Part shown: positions 7,247-59,746 of the stretch, one piece after another | Numbering within the stretch: the stretch's first letter is position 1 | Layout: each line of letters opens with the position of its first letter | From: Candidatus Omnitrophota bacterium | GTDB lineage: Bacteria > Omnitrophota > Gorgyraeia > Gygaellales > Profunditerraquicolaceae | Direction: 5' to 3' | Assembly: GCA_016208765.1 (NCBI GenBank) | Contig: JACQXK010000004.1 | Location: forward strand, 84,243 to 148,242 | DNA length: 64,000 nucleotides | Made by a program: the position numbers and the translations under genes | Notes under the pieces: generated by a model | The model's database searches: none | Told to the model about the DNA's origin: nothing | Seen by the model: only the letters and a program-made list of their open reading frames with translations

Positions 7247-7464
7247 AACCAGCCTCCTCCTTATTTGCCTTATCTAAAAAACAAAGGCGTCCTTTAAATA
7301 AAGAACGCCTGCGTTCAATTTATGCTGTAACTGCTTCCGCACTCCGACGTGCTTAAGCATAAATCCATTAAAGCTGAGTTATAAGAAAAATACCCAACTT
7401 TTCGGATTATTATAAGTACAAGTAAAGAATTGGCTGTTTTGGTAACCCTTTTTTATCCTTTTTT
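7247..7464 (-). promoter_or_regulatory. amtB1 5' leader: bipartite motif, hexaloop hairpin and terminator (ANTAR-type attenuator)
   Basis: Plus-strand TACAAGTAAA 7417-7426 / TGGTAAC 7440-7446. P2 palindrome gaacgcctgcgttcaa at 7304-7319 overlaps the terminator ggcgtccttt...aagaacgcc (7286-7310), which is preceded on the plus strand by aaaaaacaaa (a U-tract on the RNA). Confidence 0.55.
7286..7310 (-). terminator. Leader intrinsic terminator upstream of amtB1
   Basis: Stem GGCGUUCUUU/AAAGGACGCC followed by UUUGUUUUUU on the minus-strand RNA. Confidence 0.55.
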
Positions 7465-7713
7465 CTATCCTATTGCCATCACCCCCCTCTCCTCAGTACG
7501 TATACGTATGCATTCAGATAACTCCATAACAAATATCTTACCGTCTCCTGTTGAGCCGCTTTTAGCACCGTTAATAATGGCGTTAATGGCTGGTTCAAGG
7601 AAATTATCATTTACAGCTATTTCAAGACGGATCTTACGCAGGAGATTACCTGTTTCTTTGGCTCCGCGATAAACCTCGGTAACACCCTTTTGCCGACCAT
7701 GGCCCAAGGCCAC
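7465..7713 (-). CDS. glnK: PII nitrogen regulatory protein (GlnK), N-terminally truncated copy 2
   Basis: (IV)[19 protein letters not shown]...[14 protein letters not shown]. It begins 5 nt after the amtB2 stop and again starts at the T-loop. About 190 nt are ~98 % identical to copy 1. Confidence 0.6.
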
Positions 7714-7721
7714 AATACTAA

Positions 7722-43596: not shown

Positions 43597-44903
43597 TTCT
43601 TTCTTTTGGCGAGTTCGCGTTCCTTTACCTTTTGTATATCAGATGCAACTTGCTCCGGGCTCTTCTCTCCGAGGATAATTGACTGGATCCCCCTGTCAAC
43701 AGCCTCAATAACCGCGGAAGATTCAGATACCCCCCAAACATTTGGATGAGTAGCCGATTCCATGCCTTTGGCAAACTGGGCAAGGATTTCCGGGATTTTA
43801 TTCAGGCTGTTTTTATTTGCAGGCAGGTTATTAGTTTCCTGCGCAAGATAGGCCTGCTGTTCAGTATCCGTGAGCCACTGCAAAAACTTAACCGCTTCTT
43901 CTTTATTCTTTGAGCGCGCATTAACCATAAAAGAAGACCCTGCCCCGCCCCAAATTGCCATCGGGAATTTCTCAGATGCCTTTGGAGGAAGGATTGCGCC
44001 ATAATCCAGGTTAGGATTCATACCCTTGTAAACATTCACGCACCAGGATCCATTAAAAGCAAAAACAGCTTTTTCGTTTGCAAAAAGCTGTTCTGCGGTT
44101 TTATTTACCATCGTGATGATGCTTTGATTTAATAAACCGGCGTTCTTCATTTCCTTAAAAATACTAAAAACCTTTACCCAATCAGGATCAGTATAAGGCA
44201 CCTCTCCTTTTAAGGTCGCCAATACCTTATCTTTGCCCATAATGTTAAAAGCATAATTATTAGCAAAACAATCCACCATCCAAAGCTCTCCCCACCCGGA
44301 AACAAAACCCTCTATATTAGCTTGCTTGATCTTCGGCCCCAGGGCAATTAATTCCTCAAAGGTTACAGGGGGTTTCTTGGGATTTAATCCGAGAGCTTTA
44401 AATAAATTCTTGTTATAAAGCATCTGAATGGTCATTATGTCAATAGGCACACCATAAATCCCCGGGCTTACATTATAAACTCCTCCTGCTGTAAACTCAT
44501 TCACCTCAAGCGCCTTGGCATAAAAACAATTTTTCCATTTGCCATTATCAGCATCCATATAAGGAGTAAGATCCAAAACATGCCCGGCTTTGATATAAGA
44601 GGCAAAGTCGCGTTTTTCCCCCAAAACACCGAATATATCCGGAAGGTTGAACCCTTGTGCTGCGGCACGCACCTTCTGGGAATAGGCGTCAGAAGGGGCA
44701 AAAAGCTCAAAATTTACTTTTACGCCAGTTTTAGCTTCATAGTTCTTGGCTAATTGCTGCAAAGGAGCGTCGCGGTCAGTCATCCAATACCAGATATTGA
44801 CGGTATTTTTAGAAGATTCTTTTGAAGAGCCCCCGCAGCCGGAAAAAATAAATGAAAACATACAAAATGCCAAAAACATAAAGCTAAACTTTCTACCTGC
44901 CAT
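43593..44903 (-). CDS. Extracellular solute-binding protein of the sugar ABC transporter (lipoprotein)
   Basis: Lipobox FSGCGGS; 436 aa family-1 SBP. Confidence 0.75.
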   Translation of the reverse strand: MAGRKFSFMFLAFCMFSFIFSGCGGSSKESSKNTVNIWYWMTDRDAPLQQLAKNYEAKTGVKVNFELFAPSDAYSQKVRAAAQGFNLPDIFGVLGEKRDFASYIKAGHVLDLTPYMDADNGKWKNCFYAKALEVNEFTAGGVYNVSPGIYGVPIDIMTIQMLYNKNLFKALGLNPKKPPVTFEELIALGPKIKQANIEGFVSGWGELWMVDCFANNYAFNIMGKDKVLATLKGEVPYTDPDWVKVFSIFKEMKNAGLLNQSIITMVNKTAEQLFANEKAVFAFNGSWCVNVYKGMNPNLDYGAILPPKASEKFPMAIWGGAGSSFMVNARSKNKEEAVKFLQWLTDTEQQAYLAQETNNLPANKNSLNKIPEILAQFAKGMESATHPNVWGVSESSAVIEAVDRGIQSIILGEKSPEQVASDIQKVKERELAKRKK

Positions 44904-45064
44904 TAAAATGCTCCTTTCCTGGACAATCCAACATATAGTTTAACATTTAAAAAAGGTTAAATCAAGGCTTGAAATAGCCGGCAAAGCTCCCTTTGAGAAG
45001 GAAATTAAAATTTATCATAAGTTTAGATAGAGGTCAAGAGTTTTTCACAGCTTTATTAACTATT

Positions 45065-45409
45065 TTAAGCCTGCTGGCAATGCCGCAGTATACGTGACAT
45101 TCCCATTAAATCCGCTTTTTCCAGATTAATCCCTATCCTATATTTATGCAAATCCGCTTTTTGCGACCAAATCACTTTGCCGCGGGCGTATAATGGCTCG
45201 CCTTTCCCATATGTATCCACCCAGACTTCCAAAGGCGTGTTTTCCGGCAAAGGTATTCCTAAAACCATCCCCATACCTTTAGCGCTTATATCAGATAATT
45301 GCCCAGCACCCTCACTATTGTTGTTTAAATCTAAAAAACGCAAAGAACAATCTGCATTAAACCTGGCAAATATCCTTTTATCCGCAAAATTGTCTTGTGC
45401 CATTTTCAC
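45065..45409 (-). CDS. PilZ-domain protein (c-di-GMP-binding)
   Basis: RxxxR-like motif and DxSxxG (DISAKGMGMV) motif; 114 aa. Confidence 0.6.
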   Translation of the reverse strand: MKMAQDNFADKRIFARFNADCSLRFLDLNNNSEGAGQLSDISAKGMGMVLGIPLPENTPLEVWVDTYGKGEPLYARGKVIWSQKADLHKYRIGINLEKADLMGMSRILRHCQQA

Positions 45410-45539
45410 CTCGCATTTTGGAAAATATATCTTATAATAAAAATTCTAACTCTTTGCTGCTAATAAGCTTAATAACCTGATTTATCTGTCCATATCATAC
45501 CCCCCTTTCTTGATTTTGCAAACAATTTTTTGTGTTTTT

Positions 45540-48500
45540 TTAATTAAGCCACCATCTGCGCCTTAACCAATACGGCATTTGCCCAAATCCAAACGCATAG
45601 CTCTGAGAAAATGTATTAAGTAAACAGCCGTAATTTAAATTTTCATTGCTGTTTCCTTTCATACTTACGGCAGAGCTGGATTTATATGAATGTTTCCCGA
45701 TTTCAGATAGCAGCGCCTCTTGAATAGGAATTATATAGTCTTGATGCGTATATTCAGGAGACTGAGCAATCACGGTTAACTTTTGGCTAAATCTTGTTCT
45801 CTCAAAAAGTATTTTGATAGCGGTAACAATGCGTTCATTTAAGATATCGTTAAACCGTTCTCTGTTTCCACAAGAACTCAATATCCTGAAAGCCGGATCA
45901 ATGTAGCAATTATTTAGTAAAAAATAATCAATGTCAAAATCAAGTATTATATCCGGATAATCTTTTAAGTCGGAGAAATACGGAAGGTCATAAACATGGA
46001 TGACTCTTACATCAGGAATTAAACCTCTATTTTGTCTCCTTGCTTTTATGAGCAATTTCCGGACATTCTTTTGCTCTTTGGCTGGATTCATATAATGAGG
46101 AACAATCCAATACATCCTTGAAATAACCCCATGATAAAATAACGGCATTATCATAGAAGCGCAATCGTATTCAGACCACCAGTTTTGTATGGTATTTTGG
46201 CCGAGGCCATATATACGCGATGGCATACTCAAATCACTATGGGCATCAAAGTGGATTAATGTTGCTCCACGGGAAATTCTGCTTTTCAGCAAATACTCAA
46301 TTACTACGTTATACATCTGGCCGTGATCTACCACCAACCAAAGGCCATCATTGATCATTTTTACGCCTCTTAATATAACACGATCAAAACACTGCATCAT
46401 TGGAGCAAGCTTTACCGGTAGAAAAGTATGACTAACCTCATCAACTACAGCAACTTCAGGGCCGTTTCCTTCTTTCTTTATGGCGGAGCTGGAGTTACGC
46501 TGGAAGTGTCCCCTGTCTTCTGTCGCCGAGGAGGCGCCGCTTGTTAGCTTACCCACTGTCCCGATTGATTTGGAAACAGTTTCCGAGTTGTTCGGGAAAC
46601 TGGGCTCTTTTAGCACCGCCGAGGATGCACCCTCATCGGAATTAAATATTGTGTCCCTGGAATTAAACACTAACCTTATTGACATTCCTCCTGCCATACA
46701 AAGATATCTATATAAATAAAGAACGCCGTTATTCTCAGAATAATCGACTATCATCCCGGATAAATCCACGACATCGCCATTTTTATCCTTCGCATACCCC
46801 CTTATTACCAAACACGTCGGCTGACCTATTTCTTTTCGTGCCAAAAGCAGTTTACGCCGATACATCAGGTGTAAAGTTTCCTCAGTTTGCAACAGCAACA
46901 CTTGTGATAGAGTTTTAATCCTAAATATTTTATATGAACCATTATTAATTGCTTGAGCCCAAAACAATTCGGAGCGAAAACAGGCTGGATATAATAATGA
47001 GCTCCATAATCTGTTTCTGTCTATCCTTTTTGCATCGGCCCCTGCCTCACTTAAATCTACATCTTTAATTAAGGCCAATCGACTACCGCTACAAGCAATG
47101 GCAGAGCCGGAGCTATGCTGGAACAGCCCCCTGTCTTCTGCCGCCGAGGATGCGCCCCATCTTATGCGACCCACTATCCCGATTGATTTGGAAACAGTTT
47201 CCAAGTTGTTCGGGAAACTGGGCCCTTTTAGCACCGCCGAGGAAGCGCCACCGTTAGAATTAAATGTTGTATCCCCAGAATTACCACCAGAGTCCTCATC
47301 TATATACTCAAAAGCCGCATGTCTTATGGTTCTGCCGTTTTTGATCTCGGCAATCGGAATATCTTTGTAATCTTTAATATCAAAAGAAGTATTTACGCCT
47401 GATGATTTAATATGCCACTCCCTAAATGCATTCTCCACTAATCTATCAAGTTCCCCAAAAATTTGTGCTGCGGAAAAGTTTCCTTCTGTTAAACATCTTC
47501 GCTCGCCTTGCCTACAGATAGAGATACTAATAGGGTTTTTTTCAAAACTTGTGCGGACGATAACAATATCCTTGGCCATACCCAGGGATTCTACTATAGG
47601 AGTAGGGTTCCAAATGAACCCTATCTTTCTTAATCCCTCTAACTTAGTAGAAACAAATCTAGATTTACCAGTAGCACTCGTGTCTAATTCTGGATGCACA
47701 TCATCTATCCTCAACACTTTCTCATTTTTAGGATCTACAATCTGCTTTATTTTATTAGATAGATCTCCCAAAGAATAATTCTCGCCAACAACATTTACGA
47801 AGCATGGCATAGAACCTTCAAATTCTTTTATAAGCGAAGCTGCTAGGGCAGCGCAATCCCAAAGAGGAATAAAATTATAATACAGAGCGTTAGCATTTGG
47901 TGGCATTTTAAGAAAACTTCCTTCCAAAATATTCTTTATAAATTTTGACACTATGTCTATAGGTTTACCTTTTTTAAATAATGGAAAAAGGTTGCCCAAT
48001 CGCAAAACAACAGCCCTGAGTCCACTATAGTGCACCCTTCCAGCAATTGCATTTTCTATAATTATTTTACTTAATTCATATGGATGTTCAAGGTTATACC
48101 AACAATCACACTCACCCACTTTTTCCACTGTCTCTCTCTTACCATAAACCCTTAAAGAAGAAGTAAATACTAACCTTGTCGTTTTCATTAAATTCAAGTT
48201 TTTTAAAGCATCTAGAATATTAAAAGCCATTGCAATATTATTAGAAAAGATACTCCTAAATTCATCTTCGCTATAGCTGTTTTGTATTCGACTATCAGAA
48301 GCAAGATGATAAATAAAGCTCGGCCTTACCATACTCAATACTTTTTCCGTAGAAGCATAATCAGTTAAATCACAATGAACAATCTTTACCCTTCCTTCTT
48401 TTACCGCTCTTGAAAGACTACGGTTCAATGGTAAATCTGAAAGATAATCAACCCTGGAGGTGAGAACTGTTATGTCCTCTGCTACTGGATAATCAAGAAG

Positions 48501-48860
48501 TTGTGATAAAACCATAATGCCTAAATGCCCAAGCCCTCCAGTAATCAAAATCTTGTCTTTCTCTTTTCTAGATAAAGTATAGTCAGGCTTGCCTACTGAC
48601 TCTATAAGGTCAAATAATAACGACGCTCCACTCTTCTCGTCTTCCATATCAACATCCAAAGTTATTTTTTCCTTTTCTCCGGATAACGGCAACCATCGCT
48701 CTTCCCGGTCATCAATTTCCATGGCATCTGGAGATGCAAAAGGCAAAACCCCAAATTTTAAAAGCAAGAAAAATATGTCAGCCAACTGAACAAAATGCTT
48801 TCCTTCTAATAGATTACCCTTCAATCTCAATAATGGTATATAATCAACATCTCTTCGCAT
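45540..48860 (-). CDS. Giant multidomain protein (1106 aa): NAD-dependent epimerase/dehydratase, repeat, unknown domain, repeat, arginase/deacetylase-like domain
   Basis: Rossmann motif ILITGGLGHLG (nt ~47570-48545). C-terminal VVDHGQ...HFDAHSD. Two in-frame copies of the repeat family at 46462-46666 and 47098-47284. Confidence 0.6.
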   Translation of the reverse strand: MRRDVDYIPLLRLKGNLLEGKHFVQLADIFFLLLKFGVLPFASPDAMEIDDREERWLPLSGEKEKITLDVDMEDEKSGASLLFDLIESVGKPDYTLSRKEKDKILITGGLGHLGIMVLSQLLDYPVAEDITVLTSRVDYLSDLPLNRSLSRAVKEGRVKIVHCDLTDYASTEKVLSMVRPSFIYHLASDSRIQNSYSEDEFRSIFSNNIAMAFNILDALKNLNLMKTTRLVFTSSLRVYGKRETVEKVGECDCWYNLEHPYELSKIIIENAIAGRVHYSGLRAVVLRLGNLFPLFKKGKPIDIVSKFIKNILEGSFLKMPPNANALYYNFIPLWDCAALAASLIKEFEGSMPCFVNVVGENYSLGDLSNKIKQIVDPKNEKVLRIDDVHPELDTSATGKSRFVSTKLEGLRKIGFIWNPTPIVESLGMAKDIVIVRTSFEKNPISISICRQGERRCLTEGNFSAAQIFGELDRLVENAFREWHIKSSGVNTSFDIKDYKDIPIAEIKNGRTIRHAAFEYIDEDSGGNSGDTTFNSNGGASSAVLKGPSFPNNLETVSKSIGIVGRIRWGASSAAEDRGLFQHSSGSAIACSGSRLALIKDVDLSEAGADAKRIDRNRLWSSLLYPACFRSELFWAQAINNGSYKIFRIKTLSQVLLLQTEETLHLMYRRKLLLARKEIGQPTCLVIRGYAKDKNGDVVDLSGMIVDYSENNGVLYLYRYLCMAGGMSIRLVFNSRDTIFNSDEGASSAVLKEPSFPNNSETVSKSIGTVGKLTSGASSATEDRGHFQRNSSSAIKKEGNGPEVAVVDEVSHTFLPVKLAPMMQCFDRVILRGVKMINDGLWLVVDHGQMYNVVIEYLLKSRISRGATLIHFDAHSDLSMPSRIYGLGQNTIQNWWSEYDCASMIMPLFYHGVISRMYWIVPHYMNPAKEQKNVRKLLIKARRQNRGLIPDVRVIHVYDLPYFSDLKDYPDIILDFDIDYFLLNNCYIDPAFRILSSCGNRERFNDILNERIVTAIKILFERTRFSQKLTVIAQSPEYTHQDYIIPIQEALLSEIGKHSYKSSSAVSMKGNSNENLNYGCLLNTFSQSYAFGFGQMPYWLRRRWWLN
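46462..46666 (-). repeat. Full-length copy of the in-frame repeat (A-part + DR + palindromic core + DR + C-part)
   Basis: ccgtttccttctttctttatggcggagctggagttacgctggaagtgtcccctgtcttctgtcgccgaggaggcgcc...ggaaacagtttcc...caccgccgaggatgcaccctcatcggaattaaatattgtgtccc. Confidence 0.85.
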
Positions 48861-48910: not shown

Positions 48911-51900
48911 CTAAATATTAATATCAATTTGCTTTATCATCTCTCCAAATCTTAAAGTAAGAGCATATGTTCCAGGAGGTAAATTCAAAGTAGCCAAATC
49001 AATTTCCCCTTTAAAGATAAAATACTCGTCGCCATAATAGGAAAACGAGCGTTTCTCATCCAATCTTGCAGGAAAAACTGCAGTCGGATGACCTAAATCG
49101 TCTAAAGTTGGTTCTTTCTTCGCCGTTATTGCCACACCGAGCCACATAGCAAAATCCTCGTCTCCGGGTAAATATATATGAAAAGGAGGATTACCGCAAA
49201 CAAACGGCCGAAAATCTTTTTCTGCATAAAGCTCAAACATTCCTTGTATATGTCTTGCGGCATAGTCAAGGGCTTCGGGCTTAGTCCGAAAAATCGCTTC
49301 CCAAACGTCCAGTTTCACAGCTGCCTCCAAAGAAATCTTGCCATCTGAATTAACCTTAATAATTGTGTCTGGCTCCGGAGAAACTAATGCTGTCCACAGA
49401 TGCGAAACCTCTGCCTTTTGCCAGCGAATTTCCGAATCAGGGTAGATTCTCCTAGCTTCTATCTCTGGCGGAATCATATCTTTCAGTGGCCAAAAATATT
49501 CTCTAGTTTCTTCAAGAGCTGCTTCTTTATAAGTAACCCCCGCAGCAATACCTGTTGCTAAAATAGTTTGCAAATATTCTATTTCGCCATAATTCCCAGC
49601 TTCTCTCAATGCTTCAATTCTTTTATAAAATAATGCAGGCAGAAATTCATCTTTAAACCAGTTGAAAAATATTACTGGATAAGCAACGTTCTGCTCATGT
49701 AAGAATTGCAACAATCTATTTACTCTATTTCCCATAGGTGGACATACCGTGCATTCCATCTTAGGATTAAACCACTTCTTAAAAATACCTCCCATCCTTT
49801 CCCATCCGTCAACAGAAGCAAATCCTTCCCCAAGAGACCCCCCTCTTGAAAAAGCCCTATGGTCACAAGGATAGATTTCTGATGTAGCGCCTAAACAAGT
49901 ACAAAAATAAGCAAACCAACAGCGATCATAATCCGGCTTTCCAATGCCTCTGGATATATCTCTTTCATCATGTATGGTCTCCACCTTAAACCTGCCATCA
50001 GAAAAAGCCATTGATAGATTAAGACTCTCAATAATTTCTTTTTTATCTCTATCATTTAATAAACAGGCTTGATCGGGCCTGATATTAACCTTAAAACGTA
50101 TAAGATCAACGCCTGCTTTCTTAAGCCTTTCTGTTATCTGAACAATGCCTTTAAAATTCTCTTTTCCAATAACATACCCAACGTTTATTGCCAGTTTTGA
50201 GCCAGACTGATTCCTCATATTAACCAGCTCTTCAATATTTCTCATTATTCTTTCAAAATCACCTCTTCTACCTTCTTTCAACTCAAAGAAGCTGTCATTA
50301 CCATAAGCGTCCAAGCTGATATGCACATATTTCGCATAATTCACCAATGTCTCTCTAACTTCTTGGCTCATCAATACACCATTAGTGAATAACCCAACAT
50401 CAAAACCAAGCCTTGACGCTGCTGCTATCCCAAGAAGAGTCGTCTTTTTATTCACTAATGGCTCTCCGAATATGCCGGAAAATTTAATAACTTTCGTTCT
50501 TAATGATGGGGCAGCTTCTTCATTCGCAAGAAAAAAGTTGCAAAGCAACTCTAGTAACCAAAGAGGAGACATTTTTTTCTGAATTTTGCATCTTTCTTTC
50601 TCTCCGATGCAGTGCTTACAGTTTAGATTACACCCACCCGAAGGCTGAACTTCTATTTCATAAGGCAGAAAATCAAATTCCCCATTTAAAATTTTCAAAA
50701 CTCTGTCATATTGCCTTGTAAGTATATTTTCTTCGTAATTAAACTGCGTCCCTGAACGAGATAAGAAAGATTCTAACGCATTCTTCCATTTCACCTTCAA
50801 AGAAAATGATTCTGCTTCTCCACCAACCCCAGAAGATAAGCAACTATCTATTGCAGCAACTTCAGAACCTACACCGTTTCCTTCTTTCTTTATGGCTGAG
50901 CTGGAGTTACGATGGAACTGTCCCTCGTTTTCTAAGGCCGACGAAGCGCCTGCGGCAAAATTAAAACTACAATCTTCAAATCTCATAATCTGCATATCAA
51001 TTTCCTTATCAACAGAAAAATAATCTATATTCTGGTTTCTTGTAGATTTCTCATAAAATACATTTGGTTTGCGAAAGTTCGGCTTAAAATCAAAAATAAC
51101 CCAGTCTTCTTGCCCATAGAAAAGCACTCTCACCCACATATGACCATATACAATTGATTCAGTCCAGATTGCCTGAACATTTTTTATCTTATATTTCCCA
51201 AATTTTTCAAATTGATCAAAGTGCGAATAAAATAATAGCAATATCGCCCTAGAAATAACCCCACAATCATTCTCTCCAACAATTTCATGTAATAAAACGC
51301 CAACAAAATTATGCACAAGAGGATCAACAACAATACGTCCATCAAAAATATCTTGAATTGGATAATTAATTGAATAATCTTTTAAATTTACCTCGGTTAA
51401 ATTACTAAGTTTATTAGTTAAGGGCCGAAATTGCTTATAACGCTTATTCGCAATTAACAACACGTTTCCCCGTCTTTCAAAAATATCATTTTTATTCCAA
51501 TCAAGAACAACGGACGATTCTATTCTTTTCTCCAACGGCGAAGAGACAGCTGTCAAATTAAGCATTGCATCCCCTGAGTTCCTCCCACCTCTTCTTAAAA
51601 ATATTGAATAGAGCCTAAACCATTCTTGCATTAACTCAATCTTATCCCAAAGAAGAATTACAATATTAGAATCAATATTATTACAAAGGATTCCATTGCA
51701 ATCTTCTTTAAAAATTATTGAATCACCATTAAAATATACACAAGAAAATAACCCTGCTTCTTCTAAATATTGAATATACGACCCCTGTTTCCTTCCCCTG
51801 CCAGTAAATATCTCCTCCAAACCAAAACGATGGCTTATAAAAAAGTAGTCCGTTAGCATAAGCGGAATATGAAAGTATATTTTGTAGCCTCCCTTTAAAT

Positions 51901-54900
51901 AATTGGATGCTATTAAAGATTTTAAAAATATACCAAAATTTTGCACCATACAATAATTCATACTCCCGCCAACATGAACAAAAATTGTTGGGCAATCTTT
52001 ATGCTTTTGCAATATCTCAATTATTTTTAGGCTATCAATATCCCCATGAGGATTAAACTCCTGTAATGGATCATACACATACCCTGCAAATTCTAGCCAC
52101 TTCAACGTTGACAAAGAATCTGCTTTTTTTATTATTAAATGGGTATATAAAAGATATGTAGGAATATTTCCTCTAATTAGTTTCTTAATATCTTCTTCTA
52201 TTTCTGCTGCACCTGCGATTTTCACCACCGAAGAAGCGCCCTCATCGGAATTAAATATTGTGTCCCCGGAATTGCAGGAATTGTGCGAACCAGGGATAGA
52301 ATTGGCAAGATCAACCCAATCCCGCAATCTTCTTTGATTCTGCGTGTCCTTAAATGCTGCTACTATCAAACGAAAAGCACTACGTACTTGCTCGGAGGTA
52401 AGCAAATCTGTCTCTGTATGGAAAAAATTACGATCAGGAAAATTATCTACAGGCCCGAACTTTTTCCCGCCAACAAATCTTACTCTCCCCTGGAAATCTA
52501 AACCGGGATATGGAATAAGAGTTGCAAGCTCAATGAAGTTTGGCTGGCTTATACTAATAAAATCAATTGTTTTCTGGACTGAGGCAATTGTCTGTCCAGG
52601 AAGGCCAACCAAATAATAATGCCCTATAAAAAGGCCCAGGTCTTGTGCCCATTTAGTAACTAATCTAACCGTCTTTAAATCCACTCCCTTACCTATTTTA
52701 TTCAACAAATCCTGGTCACCTGTTTCCACTCCAATATTTATGCCTACAAGGCCAGCCTGCTGCATCAACTTTAGTAGCTCCCGAGAAAGACAATCAGCCC
52801 TGCTATGACAAATCCATTTTATGCCTAAACCTACTCTGATGAATTCTTGGCACAGAGACGTTATTCTCTGTGGATTTAAAGTAAAGGTGTCATCAAAGAA
52901 GACAATAAAAAAAATGCCTTGCGAACGCAAATATATTAATTCTTGCATAACATGAGGAATGCTTCTTGATTTAATGGCCTTGCCCCAAACATTTGAAGCA
53001 CAGAAAATACACCCATAAGGACAACCAAAGGAAGTCATCATTCCGAATCTAGAAATATTTCTACTATCTCCTAATGCATCTTTTAACAAATCAAGGCTAT
53101 TGGCAGCAAAGGGGAAATCATCAGGCCTAAAATGAATTATTTGTTTCCTGTTGTCTACGATTGCCGTGGTTTGTTTATTCCCTGATTTGTCTTTAAATAT
53201 GATCCCCTGAACACGAGATAACTGGTCAGACACAAAACCATACTTAGCCAAAATATATACTGCTCTCACCAATGCTTCCTCTGCCTGCCCCGCAAAACCA
53301 ATATCAAATTCACTTGCTTGTAAAACCTCTATTGGCAAGAGAGTAAAATGAGGCCCTCCAATTAAAGTAATAATTTCTGGATTATACTCTTTGGCTATCC
53401 CTGCGGCTTGGACTGCTTCTCTGATAGACACCGAAGTTGCAGTAACACCAACAATATCAGGATTAAATTCAGCAAATACATTTTTTAGTCTTAATCGCGC
53501 AGCTTCGCCCCTTAGTCTATCAAACCCTGTCATTAAACATAATATTTTAACCTCATATTCAGGCATTCTGCTTCCCGGGAATATCTTGCTGAATAATTGA
53601 GGATCACGCAAAATACTGGACAAATATGTGCTGACTATAGAATCTGCGCGTAAATTAGGTAAAGGCTGGGTATCAATTAATAGAATTCTTTTGTTCACCG
53701 CCGAGGAGGCACCTCGCTTACCCACTGTCCCGATTGATTCGGAAACAGTTTCCAAGTTGTTCGGGAAACTGGGCTCTTTTAGCACCGCCGAGGATGCACC
53801 CTCATCGGAATTAAATATTGTGTCCCCGGAATTGTTCAATGTTGTGCCCCAGAAACTACCCACAGCCGAGGATGAGCGACTTCTACGGTAACTGACTTCA
53901 TTTCTGGCATGTCTCCGGAAAACTTCTTGGCAGCCGAAAATAAGCGTATCCAAAACTGGCTGTATCGCACGTATTTCTTCAGGATTTTCGTCTCGCCAGC
54001 CGATTAAATCTACAAATGTCAAGGCGCGGCTAAGATTAACTTTTGCACCCTTGCGGATTTCTTCATTATGTAGCTGTTCACAAATATTTTCTCCGATGAA
54101 AGCTAATTGATGACGAAAATCTAATTCACCATCTTTCATTTTCATTTTATTTGCCACTATATAATAGTAATAGTAAAAAATACAGGCATGCCCCCAATAA
54201 AGCGTTGTAATAATTTTTGCGCTATTTTCAATGTCTGCAAAACCATATTCAAAGCGACAGTATTTTCTTTCTTCAAGATACTCTGCCTGTTTCCTGAATC
54301 TAACTGTTTTACCCGTCTTTTTAAACTGTATTCTTTTATCTGAAACGTAAGCAACAACTACATCAAACATCAGCCACTCTAAATCTCTTAACAACATTTT
54401 TTTTATATCTTTGTGAATTAAATTATACTGATAGGCACGAACACCGACATTCACCTGCACAGAAACTATGTCTTCTTTTCTCAAACAAGCATTTTGCATA
54501 ATCTTACCTAAAGTAAGAACCTGGATAGCAGGACTCCATGCAGGACGAGTTTTGATTTCAACCAGGTTCAAATGTTTATCTTCATCTTCCCAAGAAGTAC
54601 CACAACATTCTTCTTTGGTAGGCAGGATAGCTGCTATTCCCCTGAGGTTGCATTCATTTTCTGAATGTCTCTGGCTAAGCTCTATTTCCAAACCTATCGG
54701 GATAGCCACGAGTTGTCTAAATTCGCTCTCGGTTCTTACTACACGACTATAATTTATACCTAACGACATCAAATCTTTGCCACCTTGAGTGAGACTAAAT
54801 GCTCCCTTGTCCACCGCCGAGGAGGCACCTCGCTTACCCACTGTCCCGATTGATTTGGAAACAGTTTCCAAGTTATTCGGGAAACTGGGCTTTTTTAGCA

Positions 54901-57900
54901 CCGCCGAGGATGCGCCGTCGTTAGAATTAAGTATTATGTCCCCGGAATTGCCCCCATGAACCTTATCCTCAAATATTCTTTTAAGCACCCTGAAGTCCTT
55001 CGCCCAAGCCAAATCATCTTGAACTAATATTTCCCCGATTATTTTCAAGGCTGCATCTAAACCACCGGAAATTTTAGTAAAATGTTTAGCCAAAAATTTG
55101 CCTACGCAATGAGAGAAAAAACTATCGTCATTCTTTATGTCATCTCTTAATTCCTGGAAAGACAGATGATCATTAAGCGCCTCAAAGATTATTTCCTCTT
55201 TAGTTTCTTGTAAAACATTTACCAAAGGAATCTGTTTAATATGTGCATAACGGGTAATCGGATTTTCTCCATTTTGTCCAATCATCATTATTGCTGTGAA
55301 GACTTTTTCCTCTTTTCTGTAATCATAATTTTCCCAAAGCTGAGGAACTGCCAACATCTGGGAAATGACATCTAAGGTTTCGTGAACACCAGCATCTACT
55401 TTGGTAACTCTGCCTTTTAATATTTGGCATAAAACAAGATGCCCTATTTCTGCTGCAACATATTTCAGCCTACATTCTTGCATCCTTACAGGTCGGCCAA
55501 GATTAATTCTTTCTTCATGTGGGAGTGAAGTTATTGCTTCAGCATTACCAAAAACAATTTCATTACTAATTATTATCAAAAACATCCTGCCATCCCATAA
55601 TAAAGGCCTTCTAAAAATCCCACTAGTAAACAACGCAGGATAACCTTTATAACCAAAGATCCTTGATGGACCACTGATTATCTTATAAGATTTCTTTATT
55701 TTTTCATAAAGAGCCTCCTCACAAAGGCCGAGCCTATACAACATCTTAATAATGTGGGCATCCGCAAACAATCTTAAATATTCTGGTTCATGAACAATCT
55801 CCCAAAAGTTAGATACCCAAAGCTTAATTTTAATCTTTGTTTCTTGTTTCAAATCAGTACGATTTGATTTTTTAATAATATCCATAGCGCCATTTCCTTC
55901 TGTCTTTATGGCAGAACTAGAGTTATAATGGAGCTGTCCCCTGTCTTCTGTCGCCGAGGAGGCGCCGCTTGTTAGCTTACCCACTGTCCCGATTGATTTG
56001 GAAACAGTTTCCCTAACAATCTGGAAACTGTTTCCGGTCTCCAAATTAAGTATTGCACCTCCGGAATTACCTACCGGAGAGCTGGTAACGCGACGATATA
56101 AATGCATATTTCCAAATACGCCTATTTCTTGAATGTCTTTATCAACGTCAAGTGTCCCCGGTGGAATTAACCCACTAATTAATGGATCTCTAAGGTCAAA
56201 ACCTGCCAGATACATGACTGCGCCATTTTTCATTTGCATAATACTGAGTAAAAGCGCCAGGGAAAAAAATGAGCCATCTTCTAACGGGGGATAGATATGA
56301 AATACATCATACAATCTAAGATCTTGACTGCTGCAATCATTAAAGACCAAATGGACTCGGCCTGGATCAATCGCACCTAACTGAACAAGTTTAGAATAAA
56401 TTGCAGATTCTTCATTATGTATCCATTTATTAATCTCAAAACGCGTTGCATCTATGCCCGTTACCGCATTGACTAACATAGCTAATAATCCACCTCCAAA
56501 AAGACTGCAAAATTTTTCATTCTTACTGAAATATCCTTCCTCTTGTAAATACCGAATAAAATTTAAAGCGCTCTCATAGCCTATTGCCGAATGAAGAGAC
56601 GTATGATAACCGGGGCACTCAGCAATCCTGTCCAGGTATGCCTTGTATTCTTTTATAACTGCAGCTATTTTTTCTTCGGCAGTTAGTTGAGTTGTCGGCG
56701 GGATAGAACCATCTTCCACCACAGAGGAGGCGATACTTGGGCCGACAGGAAAATGCTCATCTATAATGAACTCTTTTAAAGAAAATCTCTCGGCTATAGC
56801 ACCTAGATCTGCCTCTTTCCTGCTTATACCGGCTTGACCAGTGTAAACAAGATAACCCTGAATTGCCTGAGCATATTTTCCTTCCCAAATCAAAATCGCA
56901 ATAGTAAGCCTTGCGCGCACATCTTCGCTAAACTCCCGAAAATCCATCGCCTGCCGCAATCTTGACAAGATCTGCATCCAATACTTCCCTGTAACTAAAC
57001 TAAGGTCGGTTTTAATATTATTAGCCAGATTGCTCTGCGTCATTAGCCTGAATCTCCCTGGATTCTTACAAAAATATTTAATGATGTAATGTACTGCCTT
57101 ATTGACAACCCTTTCTTGCCTCGGACTTAGAAGCGCAGAAACAATCTCATTTTTATCAGAGCAACTATCTTCTCCTGCATGCAACACAGACACAGGAGCC
57201 GCAGGCAAAAGAAGCGGGGATCTTTCTCTTTGAGTAGTGCAACCCCTGCCAAATGAAGGCTGGCTTCTTCTAATGAACGCCCTTCTCTTGGCTAACAAAT
57301 GATAAACCCTAATCGCCTCCCGATGCCAAAAAATACTACAAATATCTCCCGAAATAAAACCGGGATGATTTCGCTTCACAAAATCATAATACGATAACTT
57401 TAGATCCTGATCGCTGATGTAGCCTTCCTCTTCCTTGCTCCTTGGATAAAAACCAAATAACCAATATGAACTTAGGCGGGGCTTTTTTGACGGCAAATAT
57501 ACACGGTATCTCCGGGACGAATAATATAAGTACGGGTCTTCTCTCATAATATCAAACGCCCATATATTAATCCCGCAACGGATCCTTCCGGTAACCAGTA
57601 ACTCAACCGTAAACCTGCTCGTATATCTTTGCACCCTGCCTATTGGCATTAAAGCTTTTCCAACCGCATGAACTGTCTTGGTCTTTAACAAAATTTCATA
57701 TGCCTGAGCGGTCAAAACAAAGAATTCGTTGAATTTTTCTAATAAACCTTTCTTAACCAAAGCACGACTGGTAATTTGGAAAAAAACTTCACTTAATCCT
57801 GTGGCTTTAACGAATAATTTAGGTGAGTTATGCTTCCTGGAAACAGCAAAAAACACTAATACCTGCGCTGCATTAGCAAAGCGCTTGCCTGAGGAACAAA

Positions 57901-57955
57901 TATCCTTTTGGAGACAATACCTTCTCCAAACCCGCCGCACAAGAAACGCCTTCAT
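48911..57955 (-). CDS. Giant multidomain protein (3014 aa) with at least 7 unrelated segments joined by in-frame repeats; includes a B12-binding radical SAM, a second radical SAM, and a transglutaminase-like Cys protease domain
   Basis: Uninterrupted 9-kb ORF. B12-binding motif DIVGVTATSV...IGGPHFT plus CPYGCIFC at ~52998-53026. CNLNCKHC at 50603-50650. Cys/His/Asp triad DCGVISRA...YGHMWVRV...DWVIFD at ~51.0-51.5 kb. Repeats at 50874, 51548, 52226, 53696, 54812 and 55891. Confidence 0.6.
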   Translation of the reverse strand: MKAFLVRRVWRRYCLQKDICSSGKRFANAAQVLVFFAVSRKHNSPKLFVKATGLSEVFFQITSRALVKKGLLEKFNEFFVLTAQAYEILLKTKTVHAVGKALMPIGRVQRYTSRFTVELLVTGRIRCGINIWAFDIMREDPYLYYSSRRYRVYLPSKKPRLSSYWLFGFYPRSKEEEGYISDQDLKLSYYDFVKRNHPGFISGDICSIFWHREAIRVYHLLAKRRAFIRRSQPSFGRGCTTQRERSPLLLPAAPVSVLHAGEDSCSDKNEIVSALLSPRQERVVNKAVHYIIKYFCKNPGRFRLMTQSNLANNIKTDLSLVTGKYWMQILSRLRQAMDFREFSEDVRARLTIAILIWEGKYAQAIQGYLVYTGQAGISRKEADLGAIAERFSLKEFIIDEHFPVGPSIASSVVEDGSIPPTTQLTAEEKIAAVIKEYKAYLDRIAECPGYHTSLHSAIGYESALNFIRYLQEEGYFSKNEKFCSLFGGGLLAMLVNAVTGIDATRFEINKWIHNEESAIYSKLVQLGAIDPGRVHLVFNDCSSQDLRLYDVFHIYPPLEDGSFFSLALLLSIMQMKNGAVMYLAGFDLRDPLISGLIPPGTLDVDKDIQEIGVFGNMHLYRRVTSSPVGNSGGAILNLETGNSFQIVRETVSKSIGTVGKLTSGASSATEDRGQLHYNSSSAIKTEGNGAMDIIKKSNRTDLKQETKIKIKLWVSNFWEIVHEPEYLRLFADAHIIKMLYRLGLCEEALYEKIKKSYKIISGPSRIFGYKGYPALFTSGIFRRPLLWDGRMFLIIISNEIVFGNAEAITSLPHEERINLGRPVRMQECRLKYVAAEIGHLVLCQILKGRVTKVDAGVHETLDVISQMLAVPQLWENYDYRKEEKVFTAIMMIGQNGENPITRYAHIKQIPLVNVLQETKEEIIFEALNDHLSFQELRDDIKNDDSFFSHCVGKFLAKHFTKISGGLDAALKIIGEILVQDDLAWAKDFRVLKRIFEDKVHGGNSGDIILNSNDGASSAVLKKPSFPNNLETVSKSIGTVGKRGASSAVDKGAFSLTQGGKDLMSLGINYSRVVRTESEFRQLVAIPIGLEIELSQRHSENECNLRGIAAILPTKEECCGTSWEDEDKHLNLVEIKTRPAWSPAIQVLTLGKIMQNACLRKEDIVSVQVNVGVRAYQYNLIHKDIKKMLLRDLEWLMFDVVVAYVSDKRIQFKKTGKTVRFRKQAEYLEERKYCRFEYGFADIENSAKIITTLYWGHACIFYYYYYIVANKMKMKDGELDFRHQLAFIGENICEQLHNEEIRKGAKVNLSRALTFVDLIGWRDENPEEIRAIQPVLDTLIFGCQEVFRRHARNEVSYRRSRSSSAVGSFWGTTLNNSGDTIFNSDEGASSAVLKEPSFPNNLETVSESIGTVGKRGASSAVNKRILLIDTQPLPNLRADSIVSTYLSSILRDPQLFSKIFPGSRMPEYEVKILCLMTGFDRLRGEAARLRLKNVFAEFNPDIVGVTATSVSIREAVQAAGIAKEYNPEIITLIGGPHFTLLPIEVLQASEFDIGFAGQAEEALVRAVYILAKYGFVSDQLSRVQGIIFKDKSGNKQTTAIVDNRKQIIHFRPDDFPFAANSLDLLKDALGDSRNISRFGMMTSFGCPYGCIFCASNVWGKAIKSRSIPHVMQELIYLRSQGIFFIVFFDDTFTLNPQRITSLCQEFIRVGLGIKWICHSRADCLSRELLKLMQQAGLVGINIGVETGDQDLLNKIGKGVDLKTVRLVTKWAQDLGLFIGHYYLVGLPGQTIASVQKTIDFISISQPNFIELATLIPYPGLDFQGRVRFVGGKKFGPVDNFPDRNFFHTETDLLTSEQVRSAFRLIVAAFKDTQNQRRLRDWVDLANSIPGSHNSCNSGDTIFNSDEGASSVVKIAGAAEIEEDIKKLIRGNIPTYLLYTHLIIKKADSLSTLKWLEFAGYVYDPLQEFNPHGDIDSLKIIEILQKHKDCPTIFVHVGGSMNYCMVQNFGIFLKSLIASNYLKGGYKIYFHIPLMLTDYFFISHRFGLEEIFTGRGRKQGSYIQYLEEAGLFSCVYFNGDSIIFKEDCNGILCNNIDSNIVILLWDKIELMQEWFRLYSIFLRRGGRNSGDAMLNLTAVSSPLEKRIESSVVLDWNKNDIFERRGNVLLIANKRYKQFRPLTNKLSNLTEVNLKDYSINYPIQDIFDGRIVVDPLVHNFVGVLLHEIVGENDCGVISRAILLLFYSHFDQFEKFGKYKIKNVQAIWTESIVYGHMWVRVLFYGQEDWVIFDFKPNFRKPNVFYEKSTRNQNIDYFSVDKEIDMQIMRFEDCSFNFAAGASSALENEGQFHRNSSSAIKKEGNGVGSEVAAIDSCLSSGVGGEAESFSLKVKWKNALESFLSRSGTQFNYEENILTRQYDRVLKILNGEFDFLPYEIEVQPSGGCNLNCKHCIGEKERCKIQKKMSPLWLLELLCNFFLANEEAAPSLRTKVIKFSGIFGEPLVNKKTTLLGIAAASRLGFDVGLFTNGVLMSQEVRETLVNYAKYVHISLDAYGNDSFFELKEGRRGDFERIMRNIEELVNMRNQSGSKLAINVGYVIGKENFKGIVQITERLKKAGVDLIRFKVNIRPDQACLLNDRDKKEIIESLNLSMAFSDGRFKVETIHDERDISRGIGKPDYDRCWFAYFCTCLGATSEIYPCDHRAFSRGGSLGEGFASVDGWERMGGIFKKWFNPKMECTVCPPMGNRVNRLLQFLHEQNVAYPVIFFNWFKDEFLPALFYKRIEALREAGNYGEIEYLQTILATGIAAGVTYKEAALEETREYFWPLKDMIPPEIEARRIYPDSEIRWQKAEVSHLWTALVSPEPDTIIKVNSDGKISLEAAVKLDVWEAIFRTKPEALDYAARHIQGMFELYAEKDFRPFVCGNPPFHIYLPGDEDFAMWLGVAITAKKEPTLDDLGHPTAVFPARLDEKRSFSYYGDEYFIFKGEIDLATLNLPPGTYALTLRFGEMIKQIDINI
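53696..53834 (-). repeat. Representative copy of the in-frame modular repeat (DR-core-DR-C form)
   Basis: caccgccgaggaggcacc + tcgcttacccactgtcccgattgattcggaaacagtttccaagttgttcgggaaactgggctcttttag + caccgccgaggatgcacc + ctcatcggaattaaatattgtgtccccggaatt. It is about 90 % identical to copies at 46462, 47098, 54812, 55891 and 60921. Confidence 0.85.
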
Positions 57956-59714
57956 CAGAATCAGATGCTACATCATCAGGAATACCCGAGAATATGTCTC
58001 TGGAAATAATTGGGCTGCTTGCATCTATCCTGTCCGCGCGGAATATCAGGCTGACAACCGTAGAATTAGGGACAAGATTGACAATACTCACATGCCCGTC
58101 TAAAAAAGCTTTGGCAAAATTCAACACATGAGTTAGCCCTAAACCATTGGCTCCCTGCTCTCCTTTCTTATTTTTGCTTCTGCCGAGGCCTTCAACAAAA
58201 AATAATGCAACTAACCCATTCATTTCAACATAATTATCTATATCTTTCAATGCCCTCTCAAGATCGATCAGGCGCTCAAATCTATGAGAATTATTCTTCA
58301 GGTATTCTCCTTGCTCAGGTATCCCGAGGATTTCAACGATAAGTTGACCTGTTATTTTGTCGCGCCAAAGCTTTTTTCTATCGGCCTGTTTTTTTATTTT
58401 TGAATATAGCTCGTCCAGAACAAAATGATCTATATTCCCCTGGTTCTCAACGCTTAACTTAAATACACCTGTAGTTGGTTCTGATAAATTTATCCTGATA
58501 ACGCCTGACAAGTTTTCATCGTGGGCATTCTTCAAAAGCTCCCCAATTAAGAATCTCAGCATGAATTCAAGACCTTTCTCAAGAATAAGTTGCCTGTCTG
58601 CGTAGTTAATTATGCCTGCGGTATCAAGTTTCCAATAAACTTTGAGGCGTTGATTAACACCAGAGTATTCAATAGAATTGTGTTTTAAGAAAGGGAATCC
58701 GTCTATAATATGATTTAGCAAATCAGAAAAGTCAATTTCTGCTAAAAACGTATATTTGCTGAATGACCTTATTCTATTTATAGCCTTATTTTCTGCCAAG
58801 AGTTGTTCATTATCAAGACCGTTTCCTTCTTTCTTTATGGCAGAGCTGGAGTTATAATGGAGCTGCCCCTTGTCTTCTGCCGCCGAGGAGGCGCTTCGTG
58901 AATAGAGGGCTCTTAAAGCAACGTGGAGCAGAAAGGCCCTCCCATACCATTGATTATAGCCTATATCGAGTTTCCTAAAGATACTCATAAGCGCCTTATC
59001 AACTTCAACGGTTCGCGCGGAGAGCTCGGAAGAATCATTGATTATACATGAGAGAAGATTATCTCCAATTATACTGAGTTCTTCCTCAACTCTGCCTATG
59101 CCTTTCCAGAAGGCAGCTTCGTACTTCTCTTGCATAGAGAATAAACTCCCAGACTCAGGATACATCAACCTCCCTATTGATCTTTGCTCTGCCAACAATT
59201 CTTTATTAGCCAAGAGCACAAATACACCTTCTTCTCTCCAGAAAGAAAAGGACACCCCTGCAGGATAGGTAAGATAACTAAACTTACCCCAATTATTTCT
59301 GAAAGACATCAAATCGACGTTCTCAAAACAATCCAATAATAGCTCTATGTTCCTAGCAATGCATAGTTGTGCTTCAGCGTCAACCAGAACCCTATCTGCA
59401 GGATAATTGTCCTCTGGGCCATATGGCCCCTCTTTTACAAGTTTTCCAAAAGGTTCGCGCAAAAACTCCGGCAGCTCAAGTTCTTTTAGATATCTTAAAT
59501 TATGCTTGAATCTCCCAAGCTTATTTAAAACCGCTCCATCCTTTATATCCGAAAAATCAAATGTACGGCAATACCTGACCTTTGATAAAAATTGTAACGT
59601 ACGTGATGGCTCCAATGCAGAAATTCCAAATTCTGCACCTAAATATGGTCCGGCCGCACATTGCAGGGTTATCGGTCCTTTAGCGTGGTAATCAAGCCTC
59701 TTCTTAAATTCCAC
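57873..59714 (-). CDS. Multidomain protein (613 aa) with an internal repeat copy and a C-terminal GHKL/histidine-kinase-like ATPase domain
   Basis: Bergerat-fold motifs LLKNAHDENLSGVIRINL ... GANGLGLTHV. Repeat A-part at 58819-58895. The frame stays open upstream through the repeat at 59729-59785 up to a TAG. Confidence 0.5.
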   Translation of the reverse strand: MEFKKRLDYHAKGPITLQCAAGPYLGAEFGISALEPSRTLQFLSKVRYCRTFDFSDIKDGAVLNKLGRFKHNLRYLKELELPEFLREPFGKLVKEGPYGPEDNYPADRVLVDAEAQLCIARNIELLLDCFENVDLMSFRNNWGKFSYLTYPAGVSFSFWREEGVFVLLANKELLAEQRSIGRLMYPESGSLFSMQEKYEAAFWKGIGRVEEELSIIGDNLLSCIINDSSELSARTVEVDKALMSIFRKLDIGYNQWYGRAFLLHVALRALYSRSASSAAEDKGQLHYNSSSAIKKEGNGLDNEQLLAENKAINRIRSFSKYTFLAEIDFSDLLNHIIDGFPFLKHNSIEYSGVNQRLKVYWKLDTAGIINYADRQLILEKGLEFMLRFLIGELLKNAHDENLSGVIRINLSEPTTGVFKLSVENQGNIDHFVLDELYSKIKKQADRKKLWRDKITGQLIVEILGIPEQGEYLKNNSHRFERLIDLERALKDIDNYVEMNGLVALFFVEGLGRSKNKKGEQGANGLGLTHVLNFAKAFLDGHVSIVNLVPNSTVVSLIFRADRIDASSPIISRDIFSGIPDDVASDSDEGVSCAAGLEKVLSPKGYLFLRQALC

Positions 59715-59746
59715 TGCCGAAGAGGCAGGACCGTTTCCTTCTTTCT

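Follow-up and report, generated by a model that had tools for sequence, protein, structure and literature searches.

What is made when complete enzymes of several families, two radical S-adenosylmethionine (SAM) modules among them, are encoded in one reading frame with a repeated sequence between them? The question is raised by a locus of Candidatus Omnitrophota bacterium (NCBI GenBank assembly GCA_016208765.1, contig JACQXK010000004.1, positions 84,243 to 148,242), analysed here as a window of 64,000 nucleotides, to which all unprefixed positions refer. The open reading frame (ORF) C (48911-57955, minus strand) is a single uninterrupted frame of 3014 codons, as had been read from the letters, and its product is 100% identical to NCBI MBI4706703.1, [quoted passage not shown] (MAG, metagenome-assembled genome), which is encoded on a 225-kb contig and has its NCBI start 33 codons further in. 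In its taxon, and in having seven or more modules that come from different families or from none that is known, ORF C is an Omnitrophota multi-enzyme long protein. The whole is best explained, with moderate confidence, as a multi-enzyme long protein that would carry a sugar-tailoring pair of radical SAM enzymes and linkers derived from intergenic spacers.

This multi-module "polyprotein" splits into seven or eight modules separated by the repeated sequence:

aa 1-625 of ORF C: module s1
54956-55888 (aa 690-1000): module s2
53861-54808 (aa 1050-1365): module s3
52286-53695, minus strand (aa 1421-1894): module s4, B12-binding plus radical SAM
53264-53473, minus strand: B12-binding domain of s4
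52556-53035, minus strand: radical SAM core of s4
51620-52222, minus strand (aa 1911-2112): module s5a, an orphan
50951-51505, minus strand (aa 2135-2335): module s5b, a Cys/His/Asp module with a putative papain/transglutaminase fold
aa 2362-3014, minus strand: module s6, the second radical SAM
49643-50782, minus strand: core of s6, radical SAM plus a twitch-like auxiliary site
within 49736-49924, minus strand: predicted auxiliary site of s6 (C2679, C2697, C2738)
48914-49642, minus strand: C-terminal extension of s6, about 240 aa

Module s4 had been assigned the class-B radical SAM methyltransferase architecture. Profile searches revealed a B12-binding domain (PF02310, 45.9 bits against a cut-off of 32.1; aa 1495-1564) upstream of a radical SAM core (Radical_SAM, PF04055, 75.6 bits against 29.5; aa 1641-1800), and the stretch DIVGV...GGPHFT maps to 53342-53458. 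The CX3CX2C motif, CPYGCIFC (53000-53023, aa 1645-1652), stands at the start of the Radical_SAM match and begins at position 2-3 of the profile. The same layout, with a CX3CX2C core that follows a B12-binding-type Rossmann domain at the N-terminus, is found in the class-B enzymes AprD4, PhpK, HpnJ, TsrM and TokK, and identifies s4, at the level of sequence, as a class-B (B12-domain) radical SAM enzyme. Unlike these enzymes, s4 sits inside a polyprotein and stays under every curated NCBIfam cut-off (125 bits against 600 and 578; 114 against 500), with PhpK, HpnJ and AprD4 as the nearest families. The closest solved structure found by PDB sequence search is AprD4 (2.6e-27). Because AprD4 is a sugar diol-dehydratase and not a methylase, despite its class-B architecture, "methyltransferase" cannot be assumed for s4; the architecture originally assigned stands, with methyl transfer as a candidate activity.

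The second radical SAM segment, s6, was borne out as well: it matches Radical_SAM at 46.9 bits (cut-off 29.5; segment 48914-50863), with its CX3CX2C motif, CNLNCKHC (50609-50632, aa 2442-2449), at the start of the match from model position 2-3 onward. The span first drawn around the two enzymes, 50603-53700, is less exact, as its left boundary cuts s6 at this motif and s5a, between the B12 and Cys/His/Asp modules, went unmentioned. For the s6 core (aa 2392-2771), 27 homologues that stand alone were found (E<=1e-8; 270-440 aa in length), and 17 of them carry a precomputed SPASM hit (PF13186). In an alignment of s6 with 18 stand-alone homologues, the CX3CX2C triplet, C2679, C2697 (YPCDH) and C2738 (the second Cys of CTVCPP) are invariant in 19/19 sequences, and C2735 is frequent, not invariant. 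Module s6 itself has no PF13186 match at E<=1 and no seven-Cys SPASM motif, only C...C...(C)xxC with no CX5CX3C half, and would therefore possess a twitch-type, three-ligand auxiliary site. It is accordingly described here as a radical SAM enzyme with a predicted three-Cys twitch-type auxiliary cluster site; the SPASM/twitch-like character first given to its Cys-rich region is fair in view of the invariant cysteines and of the 17 homologues with a SPASM hit, although s6 has no such hit itself. SkfB, DesII, BtrN and MoaA likewise combine the core with C-terminal auxiliary cysteines on a β-hairpin (...IYPC) and a later CX2C. The open-site cluster of MoaA has three ligands, which the three invariant ligands of s6 recall. 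Compared to SPASM enzymes with their full seven-Cys motif, s6 belongs to a distinct uncharacterised subfamily whose conserved neighbour is an NAD-dependent epimerase/dehydratase (SDR). SkfB and DesII are its best matches in a PDB sequence search, and the nearest NCBIfam family is a tungsten-cofactor maturase (72 bits against a cut-off of 380). No homologue was found for the C-terminal extension of s6.

The surroundings of s6 homologues suggest what the two enzymes may act on. The best stand-alone homologue is P0006 (38% identity), and the cluster around it also encodes an intein-bearing radical SAM, two SDR epimerase/dehydratases, a DegT aminotransferase, a methyltransferase, a hexapeptide transferase, a B12-radical SAM (28.5% identity to s4, 4e-32), and GT2 and GT1 glycosyltransferases. 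Another homologue (P0012) is followed by an SDR gene, and a third (P0025) lies among genes for an SDR, GT1, a carbamoyltransferase, GT2 and a UDP-glycosyltransferase. The family alignment retrieved 46 JGI metagenome loci. In 19 of them an SDR gene flanks the s6 relative; it lies immediately downstream, in the same orientation, in 13, and is immediately upstream or fused in 3. A B12-radical SAM gene adjoins the s6 relative in three of the five closest loci (L049, L050 and L074, of the clade closest to s6), and also in L053, where it is 31.5% identical to s4 over nearly the full length (2e-50). Fusions join the same functions: the closest relative of s6 (L048, 172-2739; 42% identity) is a single 855-aa epimerase-radical SAM fusion, and L053 (3598-11030) encodes a 1879-aa protein composed of a histidine phosphatase, a GHMP kinase, a radical SAM and a C-terminal region with no assignment, followed by the B12-radical SAM gene. 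Both fusions are followed by ComEC; the fusion partners vary and the pathway neighbourhood is kept.

In the window, s6 closes ORF C, and the next ORF opens with an SDR domain:

45540-48860, minus strand: ORF D, 1106 aa
47907-48551, minus strand: NAD-dependent epimerase/dehydratase (SDR) domain at the start of ORF D

This domain is a likely functional partner of s6. From the conserved neighbourhood and the fusions we infer that s4 and s6 form a functional pair and, together with the SDR of ORF D, a carbohydrate-tailoring trio. Given the SDRs, glycosyltransferases and, in the closest clade, B12-radical SAMs beside the homologues, and the fusion of one relative to an epimerase and of another to a sugar kinase, a sugar-tailoring pair is the best reading. 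The substrate would most likely be a nucleotide- or phosphate-activated sugar destined for a glycan. In such a scheme the radical reaction of s6 at a sugar carbon would be an oxidation, a dehydration or an epimerisation; C-methylation or an AprD4-like dehydration would fall to s4, and the redox half-reaction to the SDR.

One further member of the s6 family lies in a phage-like replication module (L046, ERZ28563958 scaffold_63, gene 7001-8047) together with genes for a ligase, a primase, dUTPase, UDG, ThyA and an intein-bearing DNA polymerase III alpha. The gene stands two genes downstream of UDP-galactopyranose mutase, and may point to sugar modification of the phage DNA or of the phage surface.

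The modules are separated by the linker repeat that the original prediction had noticed. It is present at 14 junctions across four ORFs (A-D), with DNA copies 72-92% identical over 127-144 nt. The full tripartite form, seen in ORF D, reads NSRDTIFNSDEGASSAV / LKEPSFPNNSETVSKSIGTVGKLTSGASSA / TEDRGHFQRNSSSAIKKEGNG, each part (linker modules 1, 2 and 3) ending in SSA-V/I/T; the junctions carry one, two or all three parts. Four of the copies lie around s4, s5a, s5b and s6:

53696-53833, minus strand: linker modules 1 and 2 (NSGDTIFNSDEGASSAV-LKEPSFPNNLETVSESIGTVGKRGASSAV), directly upstream of the B12 module
52223-52273, minus strand: linker module 1 only (NSGDTIFNSDEGASSVV)
51506-51580, minus strand: degenerate linker (NSGDAMLNLTAVSSPLEKRIESSVV)
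50873-50950, minus strand: linker module 3 (GASSALENEGQFHRNSSSAIKKEGNG)

The copies share exact runs of tens of bases, and linker module 2 is nearly identical at the DNA level. The peptide GASSAV appears twice because an 18-nt direct repeat, GGTGCNTCCTCGGCGGTG, flanks linker module 2. Ratios of nonsynonymous to synonymous polymorphism (pN/pS) among the copies are 0.58, 0.18 and 0.65 for linker modules 1, 2 and 3, which indicates a mild, not decisive, constraint at the protein level. A word-indexed protein search with the 68-aa linker returned no match, and a metagenome scan for the DNA of linker module 3 returned 0 matches. The C-terminus of ORF D (45540-45650) consists of a degenerate last linker, SYKSSSAVSMKGN, and a 35-residue aromatic, Arg/Trp-rich tail, NLNYGCLLNTFSQSYAFGFGQMPYWLRRRWWLN, which would be freed as a peptide if the linkers are cut.

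Further analysis of linker module 2 revealed that its DNA, CCCAGTTTCCCGAACAACTTGGAAACTGTTTCCAAATCAATCGGGACAGTGGG, is self-complementary. The palindrome core GGAAACNGTTTCC occurs seven times in the window against 0.16 expected, and 7/7 copies lie inside linkers:

46572, 47190, 53741 (53741-53753), 54857, 56000, 56023 and 60965: copies of the palindrome core

A search of a species-representative genome collection with the pattern CAGTTTCC-N10-GGAAACTGTTTCC matched 38 stretches, 33/38 of which are labelled Omnitrophota or Omnitrophica (13 MAGs). Among 41 palindrome sites, 34 lie in open frames shorter than 300 aa and are thus read as intergenic, often 15-100 nt upstream of a start codon. The palindromic unit measures about 21-23 nt (TTCGGGAAACnGTTTCCCGAA-like) and forms tandem arrays with a period of ~23 nt that are intergenic in at least 13 Omnitrophota MAGs (for instance L003 7600-7790, L039 3810-3900 and L033 6492-6596). 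Short, palindromic, multi-copy, mostly extragenic and present in many genomes, it shares these properties with repetitive extragenic palindromic (REP), miniature inverted-repeat transposable element (MITE) and Rickettsia palindromic element (RPE)-like sequences, and represents either a phylum-wide operator or a REP-like element. In L029 and L014, the palindrome stands directly upstream of glmS-like and fabF-like genes, as judged by eye from the N-terminal sequences. None of the 38 palindrome-bearing loci has linker module 1 or 3, and apart from one generic B12-radical SAM they contain no homologue of ORFs A-D.

The Rickettsia palindromic element is the nearest precedent for a palindromic repeat that is read in frame (PMC10969869). 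Like Rickettsia palindromic elements, MITEs and REPs (PMC10969869), the Omnitrophota palindrome is short, multi-copy and mostly intergenic, with some copies translated in frame. Unlike the Rickettsia elements, it occurs in the window only at module junctions within a larger conserved linker, and it is conserved across many species of the phylum, often as ~23-nt tandem arrays upstream of genes. Only one palindrome-bearing locus, L035 (1-8000; PFGP01000059.1, Omnitrophica CG12_big_fil_rev_8_21_14_0_65_43_15), has the element inside a very long ORF. This open frame exceeds 2666 aa; two sigma-70-like modules, a methyltransferase-like and a nucleotidyltransferase-like module were recognised in it by eye, and its own repeated linker, NSFQxxAETVSGAIGTVG...AKGVGDS, carries the same palindrome as linker module 2. 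An integron attC-like reading of the junction palindromes was dropped, as no GTTRRRY-type site is visible by eye.

Linker module 3 (GCC ATA AAG AAA GAA GGA AAC GG) resembles the A/G-rich ribosome-binding-site (RBS) spacers of this genome (AAAGGAGGAAA, 5-9 nt, ATG), and module s2 has an ATG 6 nt after it. Since linker module 2 is intergenic elsewhere and linker module 3 resembles a stop-plus-RBS spacer, the linkers probably descend from operon intergenic spacers that became read through in frame. Folded as RNA, whole linkers reached z-scores of only -1.1 and -1.9, so a structured-RNA role of the linkers is not established beyond the palindrome itself.

Giant genes of Omnitrophota have been described for which post-translational cleavage was proposed, with the cleavage points stated to be unknown (West-Roberts et al., bioRxiv 10.1101/2023.11.21.568195). 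A class of "multi-enzyme metabolic clusters", each on a single polypeptide, has since been defined in this phylum, with recurrent radical SAM, GNAT, GHKL-ATPase and ROK modules (bioRxiv 10.64898/2026.06.07.730766). The present locus shares with them the phylum, the many unrelated enzyme families per polypeptide, and the radical SAM, GNAT and GHKL-ATPase modules. Unlike the described giants, ORF C is far shorter (3 thousand aa) and has an explicit tripartite linker at 14 sites with a palindrome. The words "linker", "polyprotein" and "palindrom" have zero occurrences in 10.1101/2023.11.21.568195 and 10.64898/2026.06.07.730766; as far as the literature is searchable, it holds no description of the tripartite linker, and the explicit palindrome-bearing junctions and the pairing of s6 with SDR and B12 enzymes are new to it. 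The serial fusion had been called unusual, which is true of bacteria in general and not of Omnitrophota, as these two preprints document. A relative of 4816 aa (P0002) combines a radical SAM resembling s6 with a B12-radical SAM and one more radical SAM core, and has short RSExRS-like junctions.

How such a chain would work is the second part of the question. The best reading of the region is that enzymes which elsewhere stand free are strung together whole, in a single frame, by a lineage-specific repeated linker. Translation of the chain as a unit, followed by cutting at the linkers, would be one of two ways for it to work, the other being a tethered assembly. A repeated junction between complete proteins is indeed present, with 14 junctions and with module limits that agree with the termini of stand-alone homologues to about 15-35 aa. 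Cleavage is favoured by the long conserved junction with its thrice-repeated SSA-V/I, by the functionally unrelated modules, and by the sigma factors in sister proteins. Cleavage at the linkers and a tethered assembly are at present about evenly balanced, and sequence cannot decide between them.

The only visible candidate for a protease, and a putative one, is s5b. It had been taken for a transglutaminase-like protease, an assignment that was not supported. For the segment 50951-51553, searches of Pfam, NCBIfam and PDB sequences returned nothing at a limit as loose as E<=10. When 1.84 billion representatives were searched exhaustively with HMMER, a sole relative emerged, the 6657-aa P0004 (55% identity), the homologous part of which likewise has no Pfam or NCBIfam hit at E<=10. 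The motif residues are conserved in P0004, as is most of the domain:

51263-51265, minus strand: Cys2231
51140-51142, minus strand: His2272
51089-51091, minus strand: Asp2289

AlphaFold models of s5b reached predicted local distance difference test (pLDDT) values of 37.6 with a single sequence and 39.4 with two; in the second, untrustworthy model the Cys sits at the N-terminus of a helix and consecutive strands carry the His and the Asp, and Foldseek found no match for the s5b model at E<=0.001. An hhalign comparison against a PNGase core covered 22 columns (the His-Asp strand only) at P=0.01 and a probability of 4%. The order Cys...His...Asp, the pattern His-x-Trp...Trp-x3-Asp and the His-Asp distance of 17 residues are presumably those of the PNGase core. 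With transglutaminase-like/papain-fold peptidases (PF01841; PNGase core), s5b thus shares the residue order and has no profile or structural match; the protease assignment is unverified, and what remains of it is the C/H/D motif and its spacing. Altogether, the profile searches that had been suggested as a check supported the radical SAM and B12-binding assignments, and not SPASM on s6 or the transglutaminase. Inspection of P0004 (JGI) by eye further showed transmembrane segments (GEDAQGRKKHPIFLKSLAA...) within its repeated junctions, a region resembling SecA and, at the C-terminus, a sigma-70-like module. In ORF C, no C39, S8, SecA or transmembrane features were detected.

Several points weigh against the favoured explanation. 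The sugar substrate is inferred from genomic context, and three contexts of s6 homologues are not of the carbohydrate type (WOR-1 methyltransferases/ketoacyl synthases, the phage-like contig, and terpene synthases). The SDR of ORF D gave one weak hit only and is so divergent from the SDRs beside s6 homologues that orthology cannot be claimed. Neither radical SAM module reaches any NCBIfam cut-off (125 against 600 bits for s4, 72 against 380 for s6), so no specific chemistry can be transferred. Homogenisation at the nucleotide level could explain linker conservation without a role at the protein level. Finally, Pfam and NCBIfam profile searches recognised no protease family in ORFs A-D, and cleavage is a proposal.

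The alternative that survives best, possible and still clearly less probable than the explanation given above, is an uncleaved, tethered megaenzyme, in which the linkers would be flexible spacers conserved through recent duplication or gene conversion and the intact chain would hold the pathway enzymes together at 1:1 stoichiometry. The lack of a recognised protease and the near-identity of linker module 2 copies at the DNA level are consistent with it, as are L048 and L053, which are direct fusions with no repeated linker, and the 2026 preprint (10.64898/2026.06.07.730766), which treats such proteins as multi-enzyme polypeptides. However, a spacer needs no 45-68 conserved residues with three SSA-V/I repeats. 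The related long ORFs L035 and P0004 embed sigma-70 factors, which are hard to imagine working within a chain of more than 2,600 residues, and the module functions are unrelated: GHKL ATPase, a weak GNAT and SDR by profile searches, in addition to an HTH-like module read by eye from the sequence with no profile hit.

A further reading is a virus-style expression, in which an operon of sugar-pathway and regulatory genes would have turned into self-processing polyproteins: its intergenic spacers, made up of a stop-plus-RBS segment and the phylum-wide palindrome, would be read through in frame, and the resulting tripartite SSA-V/I linkers would be cut by s5b, freeing both radical SAMs and their partners in fixed stoichiometry. 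ORF C resembles viral polyproteins in holding several complete proteins in one ORF with a short repeat between them as a possible protease site; unlike them, it is chromosomal and bacterial, lies among housekeeping genes, and has a protease that is a candidate only and a cleavage that is a proposal. This specific form is doubtful. If true, the linkers would be the long-sought cleavage points of the Omnitrophota multi-enzyme giant proteins.

It is slightly more doubtful that ORF C is not one protein in vivo, because of separate expression through internal initiation or RNA processing at the linkers, or because of a repeat-induced assembly artefact. Separate expression would agree with the intergenic position of the linker module 2 element in other genomes, often 15-100 nt before a start codon, with the resemblance of linker module 3 to a stop-plus-RBS spacer and the nearby ATG of s2, and with the interruption of the ORF series exactly at linkers between A and B and between B and C; exact runs of tens of bases could also confuse short-read assemblers. 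However, 9 kb without a stop, with seven modules and six linkers in one frame, cannot arise by chance at 40% GC. Most modules have no nearby start: s4 (NKRILLID) has no ATG for ~45 codons, and s6, b2 and d3 likewise have none close to their N-terminus. In a promoter/terminator scan, counts were equal to those of shuffles with no enrichment, and an Rfam scan of 45-64 kb gave only a sub-threshold miRNA match. Unrelated relatives are fused as well (P0002, 4816 aa; P0004, 6657 aa; L035, >2666 aa; L053, 1879 aa). Independent cistrons are unlikely. The 8-28% divergence between linker copies should allow a large-k assembly to tell them apart, and a misassembled module order is not likely.

The breaks themselves concern the ORFs upstream:

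59747-63982, minus strand: ORF A, open to the window edge
57873-59714, minus strand: ORF B

The A/B and B/C breaks (59718-59806 and 57873-57967) coincide exactly with linker copies. The TAA stop of ORF A is the ATAAAG of linker module 3 read in the +1 frame, and ORFs B and C share an 83-nt overlap directly after a degenerate linker module 1. These three ORFs may represent a single polyprotein that has been interrupted, or their junctions may toggle between fused and separate states. An alternative genetic code was dropped because the other ~35 genes of the window have normal lengths under table 11. A variant of P0002 in the same 90%-identity cluster (P0034/P0035, ENA, on one 25-kb contig) is split into 3151 and 1666 aa by a frame change; the split lies inside a module and not at a linker, and so says nothing on junction function. 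Real indels or errors of assembly readily break ORFs of this length.

The locus had further been read as a maturation set for RiPPs (peptides of ribosomal synthesis that carry post-translational modifications) or cofactors, in which two radical SAMs and a transglutaminase-like protease modify and cut a peptide; in its boldest form, the linker peptides (GASSAV, NSSSAI) would be cores carried on one chain with the maturases that act on them. In favour, RiPP maturases are commonly of the B12-radical SAM or the SPASM/twitch radical SAM type, ApyD, PapB, CbpB and SkfB are among the weak NCBIfam similarities, SkfB is also the best PDB match of s6, and the linker peptide, which is repeated and conserved, abounds in Ser, Ala, Val and Ile. 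However, every RiPP-family score in NCBIfam lies far under its cut-off, and Pfam detected no RiPP recognition element (RRE) or leader-binding domain. The suggested search for a precursor-like small ORF nearby found none at 44850-45700, where the 114-aa ORF encodes PilZ. The neighbours and fusion partners of s6 homologues (SDR, DegT aminotransferase, glycosyltransferases, GHMP kinase) are of the carbohydrate type. Moreover, L035 has a similar palindrome-bearing linker between modules that are not radical SAMs, which argues that linkers are a general architectural feature and not a core peptide. The RiPP interpretation is probably wrong, and we hold it improbable in either form.

Least probable by a wide measure is an antiviral (viperin-like) or other defence function of s6, for which PADLOC pVip models (52 bits), the NCBIfam prokaryotic viperin model NF038283 (50.3 bits) and the family member in the phage-like contig could be cited, since these scores reflect generic radical SAM core similarity (the NF038283 cut-off of 180 bits is not reached), the three-Cys auxiliary site invariant in the s6 family is absent from viperins, and no defence genes surround s6, where PADLOC gave only generic radical SAM matches.

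The gene array of the window lies on the minus strand, and GC skew is negative along its whole length. The long ORFs A-D occupy its 3' third. The remaining genes are of normal size and include class II ribonucleotide reductase, phosphoglycerate mutase, MnmG, a histidine kinase, a porin, two ammonium transporters, glutamine synthetase (GS) type III, a LacI/ROK/sugar-ABC/GH2-like block and the PilZ protein. Among the orphan modules of ORF C, s5a has no family hit and no homologue among the 1.84 billion representatives. Module s3 contains IPIGLEIELS, reminiscent of amidoligase/GCS2-type enzymes, with no family hit at E<=1, and s2 has HEE...EIGH motifs, its sole family match being sub-threshold (SLIDE, E=0.061).

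The favoured explanation, a multi-enzyme long protein with a sugar-tailoring pair and spacer-derived linkers, bears on both the phylum and the enzyme family. The in-frame use of an intergenic palindrome at the junctions suggests a concrete route from operons to polyproteins, and the linkers would mark candidate junction or cut points in the multi-enzyme giants of Omnitrophota. The locus is small enough to clone, with clear module boundaries and a repeated junction, so that the question of an intact or a cut chain becomes directly testable. On the enzyme side, s6 appears to define a radical SAM subfamily that is so far uncharacterised and has a three-Cys auxiliary site; the recurrent coupling of this subfamily with an SDR and with a B12-radical SAM points to an undescribed radical route of sugar tailoring.

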